A DNA stretch of 29,904 nucleotides from Planctomycetota bacterium. Lineage in GTDB: Bacteria; Planctomycetota; SKW154. The DNA lies in NCBI GenBank assembly GCA_026418755.1, contig JAOAAR010000001.1, positions 1 through 29,904 on the forward strand, given 5' to 3'. Below the pieces are notes generated by a model, which had not been told where the DNA came from, made no database searches, and saw only the letters and a program-made list of their open reading frames with translations. Position numbers and translations under genes: made by a program. Of this stretch, positions 4,667 to 29,904 are shown piece by piece (within the stretch, counting starts at the first letter, position 1; every line of letters begins with the position of its first letter).

Positions 4667-5277
4667 ATGTGGAGAAAAGTAGCACTATGGGTAGTGATTT
4701 CTCTCCTTACTGCCAACTGGATGGTTGCCCAAGAGGAGAAAAAAAAGAGCGCCATGTGAGAGAAACTCTACTGACGCAGGTTGCCGCAGGCTGGATACCA
4801 CGATCCTTCGTGGTTGCTCCCGACCTAAGACATGTAGCATATGTAGTAAGAGCAACAGACGGAAAACTGTATGTGGTCGTGGATGGAAAGGAAGGGAAAA
4901 GATACGATGACCTTGCTTTTCTCACTTTCAGCCCTGATGGCAAACGGTTCGCATATGCCGCGAAAGAGGGGGATAAATGGCTCGTCGTAATTGATGGCAA
5001 AGAAGAGAAAAAATACAACGGCATCGGAGAGGGAACCATCGCTTTCAGCCCCAATAGCGACACAGTTGCTTACGCAGCCATAACAGACACAGGATGGACA
5101 ATGGTCGTCAACGGAAATGAAGGAGAAAAATACGATGTCATCGTCACCATCGGACCCAAAAAGATAGTCTTCGACCCCACAGAGAACTTAAGCCATCTCT
5201 CCGGAACAGGTTGCAGTTTTCGTTATCTCGCCGCAAAAGGGAGCAGCGTTTACCTCGTAGAGGAGAGATTAAAATAG
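4667..5277 (+). CDS. Secreted PD40/WD40-like beta-propeller repeat protein, split by a -1 frameshift at an A8 tract (4739-4746)
   Basis: AGGAGGT (4654-4660) then ATG 4667 encodes a signal peptide, MWRKVALWVVISLLTANWMVA-QEE, and this frame stops at 4757-4759. The repeat body (FSPDGKRFAYAAKEGDKWLVVIDG, about 4 copies) lies in the -1 frame to 5277. Confidence 0.8.
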
Positions 5278-5343
5278 AGATAGAGACAAAAAAACTGCAA
5301 AAAAGAAAGAGAACAGGAAGCAAATTGCACGAAACTGTAAAGT

Positions 5344-5445
5344 CTACTCCTTCCTCTTATCTCTGTAACTCTGAAGCCCTAAAATAGTTGGGAGAGACGA
5401 CAGTCGCTGTTCTCTTTCCACAATTTCCTTTGGTGTTACAGCCAT
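5344..5445 (-). pseudogene. 33-aa ORF resembling the N-terminus of an HDOD-domain protein (probable truncated remnant)
   Basis: Translates as MAVTPKEIVEREQRLSSLPTILGLQSYRDKRKE. The first 22 aa resemble the 'TPxELV...L(P/S)SLP' start of HDOD proteins (recognised from memory, not by search). Confidence 0.3.
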
Positions 5446-5725
5446 TTCTCTTTAACATACAGCGAAGATTTGATTCTTTTGCCCTACTTGACTGAAATGA
5501 TAAGAAAGGTAAGAAGTTTTGATGAAGGATTTTTCCAACGGCTTTATTCAAGAGATTTCCGCGCTATTCTGTTTAAATAAACCACCCCCCGCCCAAAAAC
5601 TCCTCTCCTGTTTGAGGAGGAAAAAGCCATCCGAAACGCCAAGAGCAGCGCCATTTTTTGAGAAAAGAAGCGAAAAAGACTTGAAATTCTGATTCTATGT
5701 GTTAAATAAGTATTAGTCGTAGTGA

Positions 5726-5849
5726 GGCGATAAAGCCATCGAAGAAGACCGTAATGAGGACGGCGAAGTCCCCTTAGAAGATAAGAGAATCTTGCTTAAT
5801 CCTTATTCTATCTGCGAGATGTATCGTGTTGTTTTATTAACCATCTCGC
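5726..5849 (+). promoter_or_regulatory. Candidate structured 5' leader of the methyltransferase-ligase gene
   Basis: A series of short inverted repeats: 5726-5737, 5749-5763 versus 5758-5771, 5775-5810, and a perfect 8-bp stem at 5814-5821/5842-5849. No match to a riboswitch class I can recall. Confidence 0.25.
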
Positions 5850-5920
5850 CCATCATTGTATTTCTTCGAGTCCCATTCCGCCGCTTTCTTAAACAAGAAT
5901 TCCTGTAGGGAGGATATATT

Positions 5921-7933
5921 ATGAAGGAGGAGATGGCGAAAAGCAGCAAACCGTCGAAACGGAGCAAATCGATTCTTACTGTAACGAAATCGTTCGGACC
6001 CGTGCCGAACTTGGAAGAGTATGTGAAACCTGACTGGTGGCGCTATATTTTCGATGCGACTTATCTTAAGACTGACGGTGATGTGGTTGACGACGCAAAC
6101 ATAACAAAAAAAGAGGTAGACACATTCTCTGCAATCCTTAAGATGGATACCTCCGACAAGATTCTGGACCTCTGTTGTGGACAGGGAAGGCATTCGTTAG
6201 AACTCGCAAGACGGGGCTTTCAGAATGTAGAGGGGCTTGACCGCTCACACTATCTTATTCAGAAAGCGAAGGCTCAAGCAAAAAAAGAGAACTTGAATGT
6301 GAAGTTTAGGGAAGGCGACGCCCGCAAACTTCCGTATCCGCCCGACTCTTTCGATGTAGTCCTGATTCTGGGAAACAGTTTTGGCTATTTCGACACCGTC
6401 AGAGACGATTTGAGAGTCTTGAAGGAAGTCAAAAGAGTCTTAAAACCTTGGGGGAAACTTCTTATTGACGCCGCGGACGGAGAATACCTGAGGCAGAATT
6501 ATAAACCCCGCTCGTGGGAATGGATTGATAAAAAACATTTTGTATGCAGAGAGCGTTCCCTCTCTTTCGACAGGCAGTGTCTTATATCAAGAGAGGTTGT
6601 CGTTCAGGTAGAAAAAGGAGTGATTGTTGACCAGTTCTATTCCGAGAGGCTCTATACGAGAGAAACCCTTATGGAACTGTTGAAGACGGTAGGCTTCGAC
6701 GACATCGTTTCCCACAGTGTCATTTCTCCTGACTCGCAGCGCAATCAAGACCTCGGAATGATGGAACAGCGGGTCATAATGACGGCTGTAGCTAGAAAAG
6801 AATGGACGCCTGTAAAAAAGAAGGAAGACATAAAAGAGGTTGTCGTTCTGTTAGGAGACCCTTCAAAACCTGACCCCCTCAAACCTATGGGCGTATTCGA
6901 CGACGATGACTTCTACACCATAGACCAGTTGAAAGGAGCTTTAAGAGAATTAAAGGGTTACAACTTCACCTATCTGAACAACCACAGCACAATGCTGCAA
7001 GACCTCATGAAACTGAAAGGCAAGATTGACTACGCCTTTAATCTTTGTGACGAAGGATATGACAACAATCCCCGACAGGAACTTCATATCCCCTCAATCC
7101 TTGAAATGTTGGGAATCAATTACACAGGAGCAGGGCCTCAATGTCTCGCCTTCTGCTACGACAAGTCGCTGGTAAGAGGCATCGCTAAAGAGATGGGGAT
7201 TCCTGTAGCAGATGGTTTCTTCATCAAGCCTGAAGACACAACTTTTGAACTACCATTTGGGTTTCCTGTCATCGCAAAACCGAACTACGGAGACTCGAGT
7301 TTTGGAATCACCCAGCGATGTGTCGCAAATAGTGTGGAAGAACTCACCCTCGCCATTGCAGAGATAAGGGGAAAGTTCGGATACGAGAAACCTATTCTGG
7401 TTGAGGAGTTTTTGGTCGGGAAGGACATGAGCCTCGGAATAATCGGTAACCCGCCAGAATCTTACACCCTGCTGCCCATAATAGAAGAAGATTATTCCTG
7501 CCTCCCCGAAGGTTTGCCTCACATCTGCGGTTACGAAGCAAAATGGCTGCCAGACTCCCCTTACTGGAACATCGTCTCTAAACCTGCTGAACTGCCTGAA
7601 AGTACCAAAAGATTCATTGAAGAGTGCAGTTTAAAACTGTTTGAAAGGCTTGGAGCCAGAGACTACTGCCGCTTCGACTGGAGACTCGACGGTGAAGGGG
7701 TTCCGCATCTCCTCGAAGTGAATCCAAATCCAGGCTGGTGCTGGGACGGACACCTGGCGAAGATGGCAAAAGCGGCAGGAATGGAATACCACGAGATGTT
7801 AGAGGCTATTCTGAAAGCAGCAGAACAGCGATTCGCTCTTCTTCAGGAGAGTGGAAAAGAAAACGGAAAAGGAAACGGAAAAGAAGAAGAAACTTCACAC
7901 AAGATACCCACAGCCATACGCAGCGAAACATAA
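5921..7933 (+). CDS. Fusion of a class I SAM-dependent methyltransferase and a D-Ala-D-Ala ligase-like ATP-grasp domain
   Basis: N-terminal half: ILDLCCGQGRHS (motif I), EGDARKLP, LGNSFGYF. C-terminal half: GINYTG, DKSLV, VIAKPNYGDSSFGI, EEFLVG, YEAKW, RFDWR, LEVNPNPG. GGGAGG RBS. Confidence 0.9.
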   Translation: MKEEMAKSSKPSKRSKSILTVTKSFGPVPNLEEYVKPDWWRYIFDATYLKTDGDVVDDANITKKEVDTFSAILKMDTSDKILDLCCGQGRHSLELARRGFQNVEGLDRSHYLIQKAKAQAKKENLNVKFREGDARKLPYPPDSFDVVLILGNSFGYFDTVRDDLRVLKEVKRVLKPWGKLLIDAADGEYLRQNYKPRSWEWIDKKHFVCRERSLSFDRQCLISREVVVQVEKGVIVDQFYSERLYTRETLMELLKTVGFDDIVSHSVISPDSQRNQDLGMMEQRVIMTAVARKEWTPVKKKEDIKEVVVLLGDPSKPDPLKPMGVFDDDDFYTIDQLKGALRELKGYNFTYLNNHSTMLQDLMKLKGKIDYAFNLCDEGYDNNPRQELHIPSILEMLGINYTGAGPQCLAFCYDKSLVRGIAKEMGIPVADGFFIKPEDTTFELPFGFPVIAKPNYGDSSFGITQRCVANSVEELTLAIAEIRGKFGYEKPILVEEFLVGKDMSLGIIGNPPESYTLLPIIEEDYSCLPEGLPHICGYEAKWLPDSPYWNIVSKPAELPESTKRFIEECSLKLFERLGARDYCRFDWRLDGEGVPHLLEVNPNPGWCWDGHLAKMAKAAGMEYHEMLEAILKAAEQRFALLQESGKENGKGNGKEEETSHKIPTAIRSET

Positions 7934-8006: not shown

Positions 8007-8035
8007 TTGACAAAAATCTCTTTTTGTGGTATAAT
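8007..8035 (+). promoter_or_regulatory. Perfect-consensus sigma70 promoter with an inverted repeat in the spacer
   Basis: TTGACA (8007-8012), 17 bp, TGnTATAAT (8027-8035). ACAAAAA-TCTC-TTTTTGT (8010-8027) overlaps it. Confidence 0.85.
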
Positions 8036-8064: not shown

Positions 8065-9006
8065 ATGGACGCCCTTAAATCTATTCTCACAAACCTCATC
8101 AAACGAACAGTCAACACTGAAGATATAGAGTCCGCCCTTAAACCCCTCTGCCGTGAGATTGTCAACTTCAAAATCGCCGACAGAGCATCCGTCATCCTCA
8201 ACAACCTCGAAAAAGCACAACAGTTCACCCGATTTGTGGAAGACAAAATTCCAGGAGCCCCTCCTGACGCATTCGAACTTCCTCAAATTGAGCAACTCCG
8301 CAACTGCGACGAGCCCATAATCTACGAGGATAAAAACGGCGTAGTTAAAACTCGCCTCGCTGTGAGGATCTCCGCCCACAATAGATTCCTCGGTATCTTA
8401 TCTCTCTCCTCCCGCACCCTCCGCAAGTTCTCCACCACCGCCATCCAAACCATCAAAGAAATCGCCTCCGTCCTTGCTATCATGCTCGAGAACCGCATTC
8501 TCCTTATGGATATTCCTCTTCCTCTCTGCCGCACTCACTTACCTGGTCTTTTAGCCTTAAACAGACTCCGTAACAAAGTGATGGAAGAGATAAACAGAGT
8601 TGACCGTTACGGGGGCGTATTTTCGATTCTTATTCTCTCCCCCTCTCCATCGGGAAAACCCCCTGCCCTGTCAAATGGTGAAGCACTCAACTCCCTCAAA
8701 GCATTCATCAACGAAAATGTCCGTCAGACTGATTTTGTCTCACTCTCTCACGATACCGTCGCTGTAGTTATGCCAAATACTTCCGCCAGCGGCGCCACAG
8801 CCGCAGCAAAACGGCTCCGTAAACTCGTCAAAGACAACTGGGGACTCGAACAAGGATTCCTTCTCGAACCCTTCTTCGGAATCTCCACCTACCCACAAGA
8901 TAGTCCTTTCGCTACCACTCTGATTGAAGCGGCAGAAATCGCATTAAACCGCGCCATCAACCAGCACCGCCCACCCATCGAAAACTACTCCTCCCTTTCC
9001 CATTGA
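8065..9006 (+). CDS. GAF domain plus degenerate GGDEF-like domain protein
   Basis: GAF features (ADRASVIL; LAVRISAHNRFLGILSLSSRTLRKFS). GGDEF-fold features (HLPGL, EINRVDRYGGVFSILIL, RQTD, VAVVMP, FGISTYPQD, LIEAAEIAL) without the GG(D/E)EF motif. Confidence 0.75.
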   Translation: MDALKSILTNLIKRTVNTEDIESALKPLCREIVNFKIADRASVILNNLEKAQQFTRFVEDKIPGAPPDAFELPQIEQLRNCDEPIIYEDKNGVVKTRLAVRISAHNRFLGILSLSSRTLRKFSTTAIQTIKEIASVLAIMLENRILLMDIPLPLCRTHLPGLLALNRLRNKVMEEINRVDRYGGVFSILILSPSPSGKPPALSNGEALNSLKAFINENVRQTDFVSLSHDTVAVVMPNTSASGATAAAKRLRKLVKDNWGLEQGFLLEPFFGISTYPQDSPFATTLIEAAEIALNRAINQHRPPIENYSSLSH

Positions 9007-9066
9007 CACCTCTATAACTGTTACCACCATTCCGCCTTAACATCTCCTTGAATGATAAAGTTTTAC

Positions 9067-9095
9067 TTGAAAATTGTAGAATGAGACTTTATTTT
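9067..9095 (+). promoter_or_regulatory. Possible sigma70 promoter for the PilZ gene
   Basis: TTGAAA (9067-9072), 17 bp, TATTTT (9090-9095). The region is AT-rich, so a chance match is possible. Confidence 0.35.
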
Positions 9096-9236
9096 AATAG
9101 AGATGGGGGGTCATAAAGGTGAAATCTCATATGCTGCGAAAACAGCGACAATAAGAAGCGAAAAGGTAGGTTGTTAATAGAATCTGCAATATATAATTCG
9201 TCTAAAATTATAGAGGAGGAAGGAGAGAAAGAAAGT

Positions 9237-9620
9237 ATGAGACAGTTTGGGAAGATACAAGCAGACATTAGTGTTCTTTATAAATTCATCACGAAGGATA
9301 CAGGAACTCCCGAGCAAAGCGTCCATCAAGGGACTTCAAGAGACATTTCCGCAACAGGGTTGACTCTGCGCGCACAACTGCCCGAACCAAGTATCCTCCA
9401 TTCCATCATCTCAGGAAACACATACATTGGGTTAAATATTATACTTCCCAACCGGGAATCTCCTGTAAAGGCATTGTCGCGCCTTATCTGGCTTGAGATT
9501 GATGAGCGCGACCCCCGCTTCATCCATATGGGACTAAAGTTTGTTACGATTGATAAATCCGACAAAGACGAGTTAACGAGGTTTGTGATTCGCTCACAGA
9601 TTTCGCGCGGTAGTCTTTAA
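9237..9620 (+). CDS. Stand-alone PilZ domain protein
   Basis: DISATG (D/NxSxxG), KALSRLIW, MGLKFVTID...LTRFV are typical of PilZ. ATG 9237 follows AGGAG; the ORF track start at TTG 9171 is less likely. Confidence 0.85.
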   Translation: MRQFGKIQADISVLYKFITKDTGTPEQSVHQGTSRDISATGLTLRAQLPEPSILHSIISGNTYIGLNIILPNRESPVKALSRLIWLEIDERDPRFIHMGLKFVTIDKSDKDELTRFVIRSQISRGSL

Positions 9621-9632
9621 CCCTCTTACTCA

Positions 9633-10670
9633 TCACAACCGTTCATGTAACCGCACCAACGAGAAGTTCTCGTTTTCAAACATCTCAACCTTCTTTTCTA
9701 TGAAGCGAGAGATGGTATATATGTTGGTTTTGATATGTTCACTTAGACGGTTGGTCGAAAGAGAGCATTCCGCCTCGACAGTAGCAAAAGGAAGCAGAAG
9801 TTGGTCTGCACACCTTGCATCTACAGCTCCATCTGAGCGCAAAAACGAAAGAGCCTCCTCGGCAACTTCGTCAGCCACTTCCTCAGCCGCTCTGCCCTTC
9901 TCTCCAACCGCCGCAAACCCTGCCACTGTATCCTCAAACTCACAAAGAAGCAAAACAGCGTTTCCAGGAGATGTCGCAGGTGGCGCCACTACCTCTGCCT
10001 CTATTTTGCCGAACCCTTTCAACCGGTTTTGAATTGTGGAGATTTCACGCTCCGCAATGTGCCAGGGAAGAGATGTGAGAGTAATAAAAACAAAGAGGCG
10101 TTTCATCTCCCCTCTCTTCTCCAGTTTAAGGGGAGAAAGGCTTCTGACGGCAGGAACCTCCGCGGTGATTCTCCCACCCCCTTTGGGATAGTATCCTGCC
10201 CTTTCAAGGGAGAGAGAAAGAGGAAGCCCCACCTTTTCGAGAAAGTGTGAAAAGACAAGTCTGATGTAGTCATAAGAAGGGCTCCATTTGGTATGAGTCC
10301 CTCCAATGATGGAGACTCTGCCTCCTCCTGCGAACGCAAGAGGAAGGTAGACGGTCTGAAGGAGAAGAAGAGAAGAGCCCGCTGTCTTTATCTCAAATTC
10401 AAACTCTCCGCCTTTCAGACTTTTAGGTCTGAAAACTATTTCACTTGAGCCGAGCGTTGCACCTTCAACCTCGGCATCGCAGATTCTCGCCATTGCGAGA
10501 AGCGCTTCCAGATGTTGTGCCGCAAGACCAGGCTTCGGTCTATTCGCCCTGATTCGGACCATCCTGAAAGGCTTCCCTGTCAGGGCAGAAAGAGTAAGCG
10601 AACTCCTTAACATCTGTCCCCCGCCTTCCCCTATACCACCGTCTATCTCTATCACTGAAATCCCTTTCAA
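9633..10670 (-). CDS. rtcA: RNA 3'-terminal phosphate cyclase
   Basis: [50 protein letters not shown], and the catalytic His region EHIKTN. The start may be GTG 10655. Confidence 0.95.
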
Positions 10671-22441: not shown

Positions 22442-24514
22442 TCATTCTTCTCTTGAGCGCATAGTAAGCGGCTCGATTCTGCGCTCCCCATAGAACTCAA
22501 ACGGCGACAGATAAAAAGTGAACCGCCGCTCATCGTTCACATTATCGTACTCGCAGCCGAACTCGATTATCCAGCAATGGAGTCTGTGTGTCAAAGAGAA
22601 AGAGATTTTAGAGTACTCTTTTTTGATAATGTCGTATTGATAGAGAAGAGAAGGCGCCCATCTCTTTTCATAAGACGCACCCAAACGGAAAGTGAGAAGA
22701 TGACGCATACCGCGCAGGTAGTAATCCTCTACCGAGAAATCCCATTTCTTGTGGTTAACGGCAACCCGCAACCGGCGCGTCAAAAGCGAAAGAGAGTCAC
22801 CAGAAAAATTAAAACTGGCGAGAAGAGCGAGAAAAGTAAAAGGCAAAGCGTTCACATCGAGGTATAATCTGTCCCTCCCGTTTCTTGCGTCAATACGGTA
22901 AGCAGAGCGGAAATCCAGACAGCGTCTGCTCTCAACTTGCAGAAGATTTACGATGGCAAGTTCTACATACTGCTCTTTTTCCACCTGTTCCAGTTCGTCA
23001 TAGTACGGCACCTCGTCAGGTTCGAGCGTGAGAGCAAAGCGGTGAAAGTATGAGAGTGACGGCAGAATCGAGTGGAGTGTTCTGTTGTTGTAGCAGCGCC
23101 ATAGAAGCGTAGAGAAAATGAATCCTGCCGACGATTCTGCCCTCGAAACCTCTTCATCGCTGTAGAAAGCGCGAGAGTACGAAGTGAACGAGGACGCAAG
23201 ATATGGGTTTAAGCGGATGAAAGAGATGTCCGTCGGCGCGCTTACTTTTGTAGAGAGAAAAACTCTGCGGCATTCGTTGTCAGCAAATCCTACGGTTTCT
23301 GCGTAGTTACGGCGAATGTATTCAACACGTGCTGTCGCATCCAGAAGAAAATTTCCAAAAAGCGATAAACCGATAACCTCGGTGTTGAAAGATGGAACGT
23401 ACTCTGTCTGCGTTCTAAAAGGCTCCGCCCTCGCCAAAATGAGTGCCTCTGAGAAAATAGAACCGCTCCACCAGTAGCGGAGGAATCCGTAACTCTCCTG
23501 AGGCTCATCCTCCCTGTAGATTCGCTCAAAGTAGTCTCTGAGCACCAATGAATCCGATGCCCGCCTCCAGCGGAAGCAAAAAAGCAGACTCCTTTGAGGA
23601 GAAGCCCAATCACAGTCTAACGCCGTGCGCCAGCGGCTTCGCTCTTCAAAAGCAAATCTTTCTCCCTCATCGTGAATATAAAATCCTGAAAGACGGACAG
23701 AGGGAATATTCTTTTCTCTGTAGCGAACTTCAAGCCCTGTCCCGTCTCCGCGCAAGGAATAGTGCTCATAGCGGATATCCGAAGTGATAGTCCTGCTCTG
23801 CCAGATGCGGATAGCGGTGGAGAAAATCGAACCGAAATCAGAACGGCTGCCAAAATAAAGTCTTCTCAATGGCATCCACCATTCCTCTTCTATATAAAAC
23901 GAGGGCAGAGGAAAAGAGATAAAACTTGCAAAGAAATGGTTGCCACTCGCCTTGAATGTACCGTCCCGTTCAAGTTCCACTCTTGCCGAACGGAACCCCC
24001 AATGAGGCTCGTCAAACGAGCAGGTCGAAATTATACAGTTTTCTGCTACAAATCTTTTCAGATTGTTCTCCGCATAGATCCGCTCGGCTTTCAGAAAAAT
24101 CTCTTCCACTCTTTCAGGCAAGTCTCGGCTCAGAACCCTCCTCTCTTCTTTCATCTCCTTCACTCTTAAGCGAAGTCTTGCGGAAATGAAAATCCCTCCT
24201 TGTTGCGAAAAATCATAGAATGCGGAGTCGGCTTCGAGCGTGACGGTTCCATCCGTAAGAAATACAGAGCCTTCAGCGCGGATACTCATCATGTCGTTTG
24301 AACTGTCAAGAGAAATAAGAGCAGAATCGCAAAGGAACCTGAGTTTGGCACGTTCAACTTCAACAGAACCGTAAAGAATTATACGCCTCTCCTTCAGTTC
24401 TATCCGTTTTCTCAAAGCACGCACTCTGAAAGGAACCTCTTCCTCCCCAACAAGCGGCATAACAGCAAATAGCAGCCAGAGACCAACGAATATTTTGAAA
24501 GAGAACTCTCGCAA
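22442..24514 (-). CDS. lptD: LptD/OstA-like outer-membrane LPS assembly protein
   Basis: Signal peptide, N-terminal beta-jellyroll (LYGSVEV, AEGSVFL), ISTCSFDEPHW motif, long aromatic-rich beta-strand C-terminus with LHCW near the end. Confidence 0.75.
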   Translation of the reverse strand: MREFSFKIFVGLWLLFAVMPLVGEEEVPFRVRALRKRIELKERRIILYGSVEVERAKLRFLCDSALISLDSSNDMMSIRAEGSVFLTDGTVTLEADSAFYDFSQQGGIFISARLRLRVKEMKEERRVLSRDLPERVEEIFLKAERIYAENNLKRFVAENCIISTCSFDEPHWGFRSARVELERDGTFKASGNHFFASFISFPLPSFYIEEEWWMPLRRLYFGSRSDFGSIFSTAIRIWQSRTITSDIRYEHYSLRGDGTGLEVRYREKNIPSVRLSGFYIHDEGERFAFEERSRWRTALDCDWASPQRSLLFCFRWRRASDSLVLRDYFERIYREDEPQESYGFLRYWWSGSIFSEALILARAEPFRTQTEYVPSFNTEVIGLSLFGNFLLDATARVEYIRRNYAETVGFADNECRRVFLSTKVSAPTDISFIRLNPYLASSFTSYSRAFYSDEEVSRAESSAGFIFSTLLWRCYNNRTLHSILPSLSYFHRFALTLEPDEVPYYDELEQVEKEQYVELAIVNLLQVESRRCLDFRSAYRIDARNGRDRLYLDVNALPFTFLALLASFNFSGDSLSLLTRRLRVAVNHKKWDFSVEDYYLRGMRHLLTFRLGASYEKRWAPSLLYQYDIIKKEYSKISFSLTHRLHCWIIEFGCEYDNVNDERRFTFYLSPFEFYGERRIEPLTMRSREE

Positions 24515-27996: not shown

Positions 27997-29106
27997 ATGA
28001 GGTTAAAGAGAGAGTCTAACTTGAAAGGAGGACGACCGCTGGTTAAAATGAAAAAGAGGCTTGTGAGAGGAACAAGTATGGAAACCTTCGAAGGAAAACC
28101 CGTCATTGGCGAGATTCAAGATGTGACTCGATTCATCCTCGTCAGAAAGATAGCAGAAGGTGGAATGGGAACGATTTACGAAGCGCTTCAATTAGGGGCG
28201 GAGGGTTTTCGCAAGACTGTGGCAATCAAGATGATTCGGGCAGAATTCGGAGACGACAAGCAATTCGCCGAGATGTTCATAGGAGAGGCTAAACTGGTAG
28301 CAGATTTAGTCCATCAAAACATCGTCCAAATCTATCAATTGGGAAAAATAGGCAAACAGTATTATATGGCAATGGAGTATATATTTGGAGTAGACCTTGC
28401 AACTTTTATAGAGAGGCACAGAGAATTGAAAAAGCCGATACCTGTTGAAATAGCCACATTCATAATATCCCGTGTCTGCCGTGCGCTTCGTTATGCGCAC
28501 GAAAAGCGCGACAGAAATGGCAACCTCCTAGGAATCGTCCATCGGGATATAAGTCCTGCCAACATAATGTTGGCATACGAAGGAGAAGTGCGAGTAACCG
28601 ATTTTGGAATCGCAAAGGCGCGGAATTTAAAGCATGCACGAGAAGGTGAAGTCTTGATGGGAAAGTTACAATATATGTCACCTGAACAGGCACAGTTTAA
28701 AGAAACAGACGGTCGCTCCGACTTGTTCTCCACAGGCGTAGTTCTATACGAGATGCTGGCTGCTCGCCAACTGTGGCAGCCTTCCAACACGATGAAGATG
28801 CTCCACGACATCTGCTACCAGCCTGTTGAGCCAATCAGAAAATACAGAAGCGATGTTCCTGAGGCTGTCTCGAAAATCATAGAGCGGGCGCTCCAGAAAG
28901 ACCGCGAACTTCGCTATCAGAGAGCTCAAGAGATGCTCTTTGACCTCGAATACTATATGTATCACGACCGTTACGGACCTACGACGAGCACATTAGAGCA
29001 TTATCTTGCGAAGATATTCCCAGACAAGGTCACATATCAGCCGATAGACAAGACTGAAGAGCGAAGAATGCCGCAAATCTTCGGACAGAAGGAGGGCAAA
29101 TTATGA
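27997..29106 (+). CDS. Soluble Hanks-type Ser/Thr protein kinase
   Basis: IAEGGMGTIY, VAIK, HRDISPANIML, DFGIAK, YMSPE, DLFSTGVVLYEML. No TM. The likely start is ATG 28078 (GAGGA 7 nt upstream). Confidence 0.95.
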   Translation: MRLKRESNLKGGRPLVKMKKRLVRGTSMETFEGKPVIGEIQDVTRFILVRKIAEGGMGTIYEALQLGAEGFRKTVAIKMIRAEFGDDKQFAEMFIGEAKLVADLVHQNIVQIYQLGKIGKQYYMAMEYIFGVDLATFIERHRELKKPIPVEIATFIISRVCRALRYAHEKRDRNGNLLGIVHRDISPANIMLAYEGEVRVTDFGIAKARNLKHAREGEVLMGKLQYMSPEQAQFKETDGRSDLFSTGVVLYEMLAARQLWQPSNTMKMLHDICYQPVEPIRKYRSDVPEAVSKIIERALQKDRELRYQRAQEMLFDLEYYMYHDRYGPTTSTLEHYLAKIFPDKVTYQPIDKTEERRMPQIFGQKEGKL

Positions 29107-29904
29107 GGCTTGTTTGCATACTTATAACAACTCTCTTTTTCTCGGTATGGATAGCCGCTCAGCAGAGTGAGGACGACTTACAAACGAACTCCTCCGTTTC
29201 GCTGAACGCATTCTCTGACCCCGAAGGAATCATCGACGAGGTGCGTTCCCGTCTGAAACAGCAAAAATTCAGAGAGGGTATCGAACTTCTCCAGATACTT
29301 TTGGAGAAAACCCTCACCGAAGCATCCTTTGCCGGCAAACTCTACCATAGAAGCGAAAATGTGTATATACCGCTCGACGATTTCTGTGTTCAACTTCTTA
29401 GAGAGATGCCACTCGGAGGATACGACACCTACATCACTTTATACGGAGCCACAGCAGAGAGAAGCCTCGAACAAGCGCTCTCCTCCGGCAACACGGAAGG
29501 AATCGAGACGGTGAGCCGACTTTACCCCTTGACCGAAGCAGGACAAAAAGCGCTTCTGTATCTGGCAGACACCGCCCTTGAATCAGGAGACGGTGCTAAA
29601 GCGCTTTACTACTTGAATCGTAGCATTCAGACAACAGGCAGACGAAGTACACTCACCTCTCTTAAAATGGCAGCAGCGATGTTAATTCAGACACTTAAAG
29701 AGAGTGCAAAAGAGATTCTTCTCTCATTGGATGACAAAACCCTGAGTAAAGAAGAAGCCGCCATCAAAGCGAAACTTCTCGAACAGACTAAAGGATCTAC
29801 TACCACTTCCTCTTCCCGCAAACAAGATATTTATAACTCCTTCTATGACTCATCTTCATCGATTGCGATACCGCAAGATTGGAGAACAGTCCTGTTTCGA
29901 GGCT
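29103..29904 (+). CDS. 5' part of a large secreted protein (TPR-like helical N-terminus, probably leading into a PQQ/BamB-like propeller); runs off the window
   Basis: ATG 29103 (ATGA overlap with the kinase). My translation: MRLVCILITTLFFSVWIAA-QQSEDD...KFREGIELLQILLE...YPLTEAGQKALLYLADTALESGD...QDWRTVLFRG, with no stop to the window end. Confidence 0.75.
   Translation, partial: MRLVCILITTLFFSVWIAAQQSEDDLQTNSSVSLNAFSDPEGIIDEVRSRLKQQKFREGIELLQILLEKTLTEASFAGKLYHRSENVYIPLDDFCVQLLREMPLGGYDTYITLYGATAERSLEQALSSGNTEGIETVSRLYPLTEAGQKALLYLADTALESGDGAKALYYLNRSIQTTGRRSTLTSLKMAAAMLIQTLKESAKEILLSLDDKTLSKEEAAIKAKLLEQTKGSTTTSSSRKQDIYNSFYDSSSSIAIPQDWRTVLFRG

Follow-up and report, generated by a model that had tools for sequence, protein, structure and literature searches.

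What does an enzyme make when a methyltransferase is fused to a ligase built like the D-alanine-D-alanine ligase (Ddl) of cell-wall synthesis? The question is raised by a stretch of 29,904 nucleotides (nt) from a Planctomycetota bacterium (assembly GCA_026418755.1, contig JAOAAR010000001.1; "the window" below means this whole stretch), in which positions 5921 to 7933 form one uninterrupted open reading frame (ORF) of 670 amino acids (aa) with no internal stops. Coordinates are on the forward strand (+) unless marked (−). A Shine-Dalgarno sequence, GGGAGG, lies at 5908 to 5913, and the ATG follows 7 nt downstream. Pfam, NCBIfam, and an AlphaFold model describe the whole ORF as an S-adenosylmethionine (SAM)-dependent methyltransferase joined to a Ddl-type ATP-grasp ligase. 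An earlier inspection of the DNA letters (the sequence-only reading) had suggested that the first domain N-methylates a small amino acid for the second. From homology and motif conservation, we slightly favor amide ligation plus N-methylation of a small molecule as the general chemistry of this family; that the product is a solute in ionic or osmotic balance is a tentative suggestion that may well prove wrong.

The ligase domain occupies residues 305 to 645 (positions 6833 to 7855). Pfam Dala_Dala_lig_C matches residues 423 to 631 with 88 bits (cut-off of 24), the NCBIfam Ddl and Van models all align to residues ∼336 to 639, and in Foldseek the structure of this half matches those of DdlB, DdlA, and VanA with a template modeling (TM) score by hit of ∼0.8. 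The best NCBIfam Ddl score is 115.5 bits, below the cut-off of 243, and the Van models reach 56 to 86 bits, below cut-offs of 495 to 775. We aligned the ligase half with Escherichia coli DdlB and with the same genome's own Ddl and took a residue census over 129 non-redundant fusions, using DdlB numbering; the roles of the DdlB residues are established from structures 2DLN and 1IOW. The residues that serve ATP, Mg, and the acyl phosphate in DdlB are all present, in agreement with the sequence-only reading, which had seen the ATP and amide-forming motifs retained. K97, K144, S150, S151, E180, K215, R255, D257, E270, N272, and G276 are kept in 126 to 129 of the 129 fusions. The equivalents of R255 and D257 (129/129 each) lie in RDYCRFDWRLD (7658 to 7690), and the segment LLEVNPNPGWCWDGHLAKM (7709 to 7765) keeps the Mg ligands E270 and N272 together with G276. 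The lid, or omega-loop (7484 to 7567), includes an insertion, DYSxLPxxLPxICG, followed by YEAKW, in which K215 (K541 of the fusion protein) is kept in all 129 fusions.

The substrate-binding residues differ from those of Ddl throughout the family. The Ddl motif GGxSxE(R/H)xxS is replaced by GDPSKPDPLK (residues 312 to 321; 6854 to 6883), which aligns opposite GGTSAEREVS of DdlB and puts Pro in place of E15; Pro stands there in 109 of 129 fusions, and Glu is outside the three commonest residues listed. The motif HGxxGEDG is likewise absent, and its position is held by a family-specific block, NLCDEGYDNNPRQELH (7040 to 7087). In the first alignment NLCDEGYDNNP falls opposite HGRGGEDG of DdlB, a larger alignment places the stretch differently, and the residue-by-residue match is ambiguous between the two. 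In the lid, Y216 has become Trp in 129/129. The D-Ala2 pocket within LLEVNPNPGWCWDGHLAKM is rebuilt as well: M277 and S279 are replaced by Trp (129/129 and 128/129), H280 by Asp (129/129), S281 by Gly (128/129), and L282 by His (129/129). Thus, of the three residues that bind the D-Ala1 amino group in Ddl (E15, S150, and Y216), S150 alone is kept, and the S281/L282 site for the D-Ala2 carboxylate is replaced. Two insertions are also specific to the family, one after the first motif and the other the DYSxLPxxLPxICG segment before YEAKW. Since both D-Ala pockets are rebuilt, the ligase partners would not be D-alanine, and because the same replacements recur family-wide, the fixed exchanges point to a single defined non-D-Ala substrate. 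Three invariant Trp residues, an Asp, and a His line the new pocket, from which we infer a larger amine-bearing substrate that is probably cationic or N-methylated.

Could the fusion nonetheless be a variant cell-wall D-Ala-D-X ligase of the Ddl or Van type? It does have a Ddl-type fold and Ddl-type catalytic residues, and a stand-alone relative of the ligase half, P0157, follows murD-ftsW-murG. We nevertheless regard a cell-wall role as exceedingly improbable. Binding residues for both D-Ala substrates have been exchanged, the scores fall far under every Ddl and Van cut-off, and the family occurs in archaea and fungi, which are without D-Ala-D-Ala peptidoglycan. A separate canonical ddl, which the sequence-only reading had expected, lies on contig C65 of the same genome (2.09 Mb, 84% complete); it scores 186 bits to PF07478 and keeps GGTSSEREIS and HGRFGEDG. 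No mur or fts gene occurs among the annotated ORFs anywhere in the 29.9-kb window, again as first proposed. Compared with Ddl and Van (DdlB, DdlA, VanA; EC 6.3.2.4; PF07478), the fusion shares the three-subdomain ATP-grasp fold, the ATP, Mg, and acyl-phosphate residues, and the lid YEAK, and it differs in E15P, Y216W, S281G, and L282H, in its two insertions, in the attached methyltransferase, and in lacking a division and cell wall (dcw) gene context. Judged by its sequence, the fusion protein is not the cell-wall Ddl.

P0157 itself (L085:8001-9017) is a protein of 338 aa, 51% identical to the ligase half and located directly after murD-ftsW-murG, the usual place of ddl. Its motifs are of the fusion type (GDPNLPDQVK, CDEGY, YESKW, and NPNPGWCWDGH). 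On its 3' side lie a 458-aa unknown protein and then an 807-aa double ATP-grasp protein.

The methyltransferase half comprises a class I SAM-dependent domain with a four-strand cap subdomain (residues 24 to 295; 5990 to 6805), identified by Pfam, its domain model, and its fold neighbors. Pfam Methyltransf_25, Methyltransf_31, and Methyltransf_11 match residues 78 to 186 with 73 to 81 bits (cut-offs of 21 to 27). SAM-binding motif I, ILDLCCGQGRH, spans residues 81 to 91 (6161 to 6193), with D83 and G89 invariant in 40 relatives. An alignment of relatives bears out a Rossmann core with motif I (D-x-G-x-G), motif IV, and the acidic positions of motifs II and III: D83, G89, and D133 are invariant, and D107 and D145 are retained in ≥90%. 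With these scores and motifs, the earlier description of an intact SAM methyltransferase fused to a Ddl-like ligase holds. Modeled alone, the domain has a predicted local distance difference test (pLDDT) value of 90 and a predicted TM score (pTM) of 0.89. Its PDB fold neighbors include three structural-genomics proteins of unknown function, with 3D2L and 1WZN among the neighbors, as well as NmbA, CypM, CcbJ, TylM1, GSMT, GNMT, ToxA, and CgnL; most of these methylate nitrogen in small molecules, and they have the four-strand cap in common with the fusion. Some indole C-methyltransferases are also among the neighbors. CypM, CcbJ, TylM1, GSMT, and GNMT belong to this fold class with cap at Foldseek E values of 1e-15 to 1e-18 and identities of 17 to 22%.

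The best PDB sequence match of the domain is 9RI2, the N-methyl-bacillithiol synthase NmbA (residues 77 to 259; E value of 3e-21), which shares the class I Rossmann core and, apparently, the four-strand cap. NmbA methylates the cysteine amine of bacillithiol, that is, the alpha-amine of an amide-linked amino acid, which resembles the chemistry proposed here for the fusion (PMC12719100). Unlike the fusion, NmbA is a stand-alone protein of 266 aa that co-occurs with bshA, bshB, and bshC, and the cap topology of its crystal structure differs from that of the AlphaFold models. A search for BshC (PF10079) found none in this 84%-complete genome, while a control search found it in Bacillus subtilis, Thermus, and Deinococcus; therefore, bacillithiol itself would not be the methyltransferase substrate here.

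These observations bear on an alternative in which the enzyme would be a low-molecular-weight thiol synthase, ligating a cysteine unit and N-methylating its amine to give a redox or metal buffer in cells without glutathione or bacillithiol. That the nearest solved methyltransferase acts on the cysteine of bacillithiol is in keeping with such a product. So are the metal and metalloid transport genes found near some fusions (CorA for Mg and Co and an ArsB-type permease with a small methyltransferase), and the BshC result would leave room for a thiol other than bacillithiol. GshF, which completes glutathione with a Ddl-like ATP-grasp domain, would be a precedent. The similarity to NmbA is modest, however (79 bits versus 66 for the next methyltransferase, a protein of no known function), NmbA ranks only fifth by structure among the PDB neighbors of the domain (TM of 0.56 to 0.70), and the sequence has no feature specific to cysteine. 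We consider a thiol product distinctly unlikely.

In the mechanism that we prefer, the ligase domain would follow Ddl chemistry: ATP and Mg would phosphorylate a carboxylate, and an amine would attack the resulting acyl phosphate to give an amide, with D-Ala not a partner. The methyltransferase domain, being of the NmbA/CypM/GSMT structural type, would most likely N-methylate a free amine of the ligase substrate or product, before or after ligation. In either order, the outcome would be a dipeptide-like amide with an N-methyl group, made by a single, self-contained, two-step small-molecule enzyme that needs no partner gene. The proposal that an N-directed methyltransferase acts together with the ligase on a small, amino-acid-like molecule is plausible, with fold neighbors that are mostly small-molecule N-methyltransferases. 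Its glycine/sarcosine version is not supported, as the bacterial GSMT model NF051855 gives 54.8 bits against a cut-off of 350. Assignments to the mycosporine pathway, ArsM, UbiE, and GSMT were all rejected, being below curated cut-offs or without the required context.

Two systems offer an analogy for the fusion. In Ngg of the N-acetylglutaminylglutamine amide (NAGGN) osmoprotectant pathway, reportedly described by Sagot et al. (PNAS, 2010), a GNAT acetyl-capping domain and an ATP-grasp dipeptide ligase form one protein, whose product is a dipeptide solute with a capped N terminus; its ATP-grasp domain is not known to be of the Ddl type, and its cap is acetyl, not methyl. GshF carries a Ddl-like ATP-grasp domain within a fusion whose partner is a gamma-glutamylcysteine ligase, and it makes a small peptide metabolite; GshF chains are absent from the PDB sequence matches of our fusion at E values of ≤0.001. 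The logic of the present fusion would parallel that of both. The mycosporine-like amino acid pathway also combines a methyltransferase (the O-methyltransferase MysB) with a Ddl-like ligase whose substrate is not D-Ala (MysD, beside the ATP-grasp enzyme MysC). There, the genes are separate, the methyltransferase is of another, O-methyltransferase family, and a DDGS/EEVS gene is needed, of which none was found near any fusion locus examined. A further difference is the habitat of the fusion family, which is largely dark and anoxic.

The description of the gene as an orphan is contradicted by the size of its family. Relatives numbered 5,560 in a word-index search, and the 120 best are all full-length fusions (636 to 698 aa; 69 to 86% identical), and an exhaustive search of representatives returned 671 clusters at E values of <1e-30. 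Fusion loci were confirmed at least 595 times in species genomes and at least 565 times in metagenomes, in about 25 bacterial and archaeal phyla. Among the named sources are Asgard archaea, Methanophagales, Halobacteria, Altiarchaeota, Thermotogota, Planctomycetota, Atribacterota, Chloroflexota, Patescibacteria, and many candidate phyla, and clusters from the ESM Atlas add fungal members (Chytridiomycota and Ascomycota). Among 164 fusion loci, pairwise identity is 62 to 81% (median of 70%). No biochemical characterization was found in the full-text literature searched, in Swiss-Prot models, or in the PDB, consistent with the earlier statement that none is known. Reviewed UniProt models contained no protein with both domains, the best Swiss-Prot match being the uncharacterized protein y4sG, and the AlphaFold DB clusters held only unnamed fusions.

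Despite this breadth, the gene is rare among its relatives' genomes. It occurs in 2 of 40 related genomes (0/2 of the same family and 0/3 of the same order) and in 8 of 401 evenly sampled genomes of the phylum, including 4 of 243 high-quality ones. In a maximum-likelihood tree of 82 members, the inner branches are short and the terminal ones long, which gives it a star-like shape. Its clusters comprise 19 Planctomycetota, the Atribacterota, and Freyarchaeia with Jordarchaeia, and Hodarchaeota, Altiarchaeota, and one Methanophagales row fall among bacteria. Because of this patchy occurrence and the star-like tree with archaeal rows scattered among bacteria, we read the gene as accessory, under strong purifying selection, and horizontally moving. 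Carriage on mobile elements was considered and dropped, as 72,556 plasmids held no full-length match. The fusion proteins of a Methanophagales metagenome-assembled genome (MAG; L035) and a Nitrosotalea MAG (L052) are nearly identical (terminal branches of 0.01 to 0.02), suggesting that a contig was mis-binned or that the gene moved very recently.

The same searches bear on whether the two domains belong together chemically. The domains might be uncoupled, with the methyltransferase-like half acting as a SAM sensor that regulates the ligase, or with each half serving an unrelated substrate. The 671 clusters do include stand-alone ligases (338 to 370 aa; 40 to 57% identical) and stand-alone methyltransferases, and those ligase relatives with readable context had no directly adjacent methyltransferase gene; nor is the relative orientation of the two domains confidently modeled. 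However, both domains, with their catalytic motifs intact, are present in each of the 120 best relatives and each of the 129 non-redundant loci, the pattern expected of joint selective constraint, and uncoupled domains seem to us quite improbable. A search for the two activities as split, adjacent genes yielded no such pair: the readable stand-alone relatives lacked an adjacent partner, and several contigs were too short. Kinship with SET-domain/ATP-grasp fusions was also rejected, since the ligases of L086 are only 23 to 24% identical and belong to a different clade. That cluster (L086:619-8843) encodes a methyltransferase-only relative (P0209), a 692-aa Ddl_C protein, an 863-aa fusion of Ddl_C with a SET domain, and an ABC exporter with a cNMP-binding domain.

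What the coupled enzyme might be for was approached through gene neighborhoods. ORFs were called in the 164 loci, which reduced to 129 groups at 90% identity, and four genes per side were clustered. Across these 129 loci, no neighbor is conserved in most, and no biosynthetic gene cluster surrounds the fusion in the ∼135 distinct loci examined. Outside Planctomycetota (whose own operon pattern is described below), the commonest neighbor is a CorA Mg/Co channel, present in 9 of 129 loci and always on the same strand. It is directly adjacent in 7 of the 9 (4 upstream and 3 downstream, with gaps of 67 to 420 nt). In Thermotoga sp. 38H-to, a cultivable carrier (orthologue P0040), 115 nt separate the fusion gene from corA. 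Of the 103 adjacent same-strand genes, 7 belong to CorA, more than to any other Pfam family; the next families have 3. By rank, CorA accounts for 7/241 first neighbors, 1/219 second, 1/193 third, and 0/719 further ones (first rank versus the rest, Fisher odds ratio of 17 and P = 1.2e-4, for loci that are not fully independent and represent about six separate lineages). Of the nine CorAs so linked, eight, from Thermotoga, Clostridia, Sumerlaeota, and Aminicenantes loci, are mutually 46 to 78% identical, and the 8 members of this linked subfamily pass the TIGR00383 equivalog cut-off. CorA proteins are reported to transport Mg2+ and Co2+ (PMC3629940).

The CorA link recurred in a genome added later, G040, which reads MFS-CorA-MscS-[fusion] on one strand and whose fusion shares only 52% identity with that of the window. 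The nearest relative (86% identical) has CorA 175 nt downstream of the fusion. Weaker recurrent neighbors are a UPF0316 membrane protein (8 loci), an ArsB/CitMHS-type permease (5 loci), a small daptide-type N-methyltransferase (5 loci), MarC/NAAT small-neutral-amino-acid transporters (4 loci), and MFS transporters (4 loci), with MscS in L010 and an amino-acid permease in L003. The UPF0316 protein reappeared 8 nt upstream of the fusion in G350, likewise added later; a literature search on UPF0316/DUF2179 gave nothing useful on function. A stand-alone relative of the ligase, P0167 (49% identical), sits between a CitMHS/PAS permease and two Kef-type antiporters. An MgtE link was discarded because it was confined to a single Asgard lineage, and MFS was discarded as a tight partner because three loci share an MFS 54 to 67% identical and the others are at 21 to 27%.

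Because the gene recurs beside CorA, MFS, MscS, the ArsB/CitMHS-type permease, and amino-acid transporters, the product of the proposed mechanism would probably be a cytoplasmic solute with a part in ionic or osmotic balance. The earlier idea of a compatible solute thereby gains modest contextual support, from recurring transporter and channel neighbors that ∼90% of loci do not have. Taken as a whole, the proposal is that one horizontally mobile gene makes an N-methylated dipeptide-like solute that acts with CorA and with mechanosensitive and solute channels in ionic and osmotic homeostasis; we offer this as a possibility only, with the odds against it.

Several observations weigh against parts of this proposal. 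Most loci (∼90%) are without any recurrent transport neighbor. The CorA subfamily occurs in 94 of the phylum's 401 sampled genomes, namely, 4 of the 8 that carry the fusion and 90 of the other 393, a weak co-occurrence at the genome level on which an obligate CorA partnership was rejected. In the window, CorA is not adjacent to the fusion. This genome's CorA lies elsewhere, split across two contig ends. The CorA link therefore looks like co-regulation or co-location rather than obligate partnership. Further, ligation and methyl transfer in every member of the family rest on homology, the fusion sequence reaches no curated methyltransferase family above its cut-off, and the fold class of the methyltransferase also holds C-methyltransferases (PsmD and SeMT). 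The full-length AlphaFold model has a pLDDT of 84 with both domains confident, and its pTM of 0.55 leaves their mutual orientation uncertain; we therefore make no claim of channeling. Finally, in Planctomycetota the gene sits within a ribosomal-protein/tRNA-modification operon, and an identity of ∼70% between members from different domains of life is remarkably high for an accessory enzyme that makes a solute and could point instead to a macromolecular substrate. The corA pieces of this genome, of the TmCorA type, lie at C103:23-715 and C82:1-399 (L177 and L178), with the assembly breaks inside the gene and the neighbors only partly known.

The last two of these points belong to an alternative in which the substrate is a protein or peptide: the ATP-grasp half would add residues to a protein of the translation apparatus, as RimK does to S6, and the methyltransferase would methylate the new terminal amine, as CypM does at a peptide N terminus. 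Nineteen non-redundant Planctomycetota loci place the fusion, on the same strand, within ffh-rpsP-x-trmD-[fusion]-rplS-yraN-tatD; RimK-type ATP-grasp genes are adjacent, as separate neighbors, in 3 of 103 loci; and CypM is among the methyltransferase fold neighbors. The median pairwise identity of 70% would fit a conserved macromolecular substrate, and both terminal tails are basic and predicted to be disordered. On the other hand, the trmD-operon placement is confined to one phylum, and the patchy distribution (2% of that phylum's genomes) is odd if the target were ribosomal and universal. With its closing lid, YEAKW, the ligase belongs to the Ddl type rather than to the RimK or TTL type, and the fusion protein has no RimK or RimK_N match in Pfam or NCBIfam. 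NmbA, the closest methyltransferase relative, has a narrow small-molecule basket (PMC12719100). A protein substrate is unlikely on this evidence, if worth keeping in view. As a separate observation on these operons, their rpsP ORFs are unusually long (341 to 385 aa as called, with an S16 domain of 62 aa) in L006, L014, L016, L021, L024, L031, L056, and other Planctomycetota.

The occurrence of C-methyltransferases in the fold class suggests a different alternative, in which the methyl group is not placed on nitrogen. Methylation would instead give a transient methyl ester (or a C- or S-methyl group) by which the substrate is shielded or steered for the ligase, and a specialized metabolite, not a solute, would result. 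Transient carboxyl methylation as protection has a precedent in CysG of cystargolide and belactosin assembly, a pathway with ATP-grasp enzymes (PMC11427300). Specialized metabolism would sit poorly with the lack of a biosynthetic cluster at the ∼135 loci and with the conservation and breadth of the family, and the named fold neighbors are mostly N-directed. We judge this alternative improbable.

If N-methylated dipeptide-like solute synthesis is correct, the family would supply a new and widespread small molecule to bacteria, archaea, and early fungi of anoxic habitats. The family combines a Ddl-type ATP-grasp ligase and a class I N-methyltransferase, both of known kinds; the link to transport genes is new. 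The carriers number over a thousand species-level genomes and metagenome contigs, plus chytrid and ascomycete fungi, and identifying the product would name a probably new, common metabolite. It would also correct a widespread misannotation, as databases label the family "methyltransferase domain-containing protein" or, wrongly, "D-alanine-D-alanine ligase"; the Ddl label is misleading in archaea and fungi. The ligase half would then represent a Ddl scaffold retuned to a new substrate by fixed exchanges (E15P, Y216W, S281G, L282H, and two further Trp). The association with CorA, MFS, and MscS suggests that the relevant conditions are Mg or Co limitation or excess and osmotic shifts.

The remaining features of the gene lie at its ends and flanks. 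Residues 1 to 23 (5921 to 5989) form a basic, low-complexity tail that is predicted to be disordered (pLDDT of <50) and is poorly conserved, its alignment consensus being undefined; residues 646 to 670 (7856 to 7930) form a Gly/Lys/Glu-rich tail, also predicted to be disordered. A gap of 643 nt upstream of the gene (5278 to 5920) contains no convincing ORF and no Rfam match. Downstream, a perfect sigma-70-type promoter match (TTGACA-17-TATAAT, 12/12, with a TG extension; 8007 to 8035) precedes the GAF/GGDEF gene. Given this gap and the next gene's own sigma-70 consensus, the earlier reading of the fusion gene as monocistronic is reasonable on sequence grounds. About 150 nt 5' of the start codon, a 17-nt block, GGYGAAGTCCCMTTAGA (5762 to 5778), is found only in the window, L092, and L093; it is kept in the locus of the 86%-identical nearest relative and in no further locus of 180 and could be a local promoter or operator. 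A riboswitch or leader RNA was rejected, as Rfam gave no match in the window or in the nine CorA-linked loci and the sole conserved upstream block is common to one close relative. No RNA sequencing run with the gene was found; the sole public run containing the sequence is a 2014 hot-spring DNA metagenome. An anti-phage defense role was also set aside when PADLOC returned just a generic methyltransferase-domain match.

The other ORFs annotated in the window encode MlaFED, PanE, a TmcD-like fragment, GAF-GGDEF and PilZ proteins, RtcA, aminotransferases, ABC exporters, and a Ser/Thr kinase. Two further ORFs, one of 690 aa at 22442 to 24514 (−) and one open-ended, of 267 aa, at 29103 to 29903 (+), had no Pfam match at an E value of ≤1e-5. 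At 9633 to 10670 (−) lies RtcA, the RNA 3'-terminal phosphate cyclase (358 bits, passing the equivalog cut-off); the RtcB ligase and RtcR regulator were not found among its annotated neighbors. Directly 3' of the fusion gene, 8065 to 9620 carries a small c-di-GMP pair, served by its own perfect sigma-70 promoter. On the 5' side, a 202-aa ORF at 4669 to 5277 matches the first third of the model for the TmcD electron-transfer subunit (41 bits versus a cut-off of 440) and may be a TmcD fragment or a distant relative.

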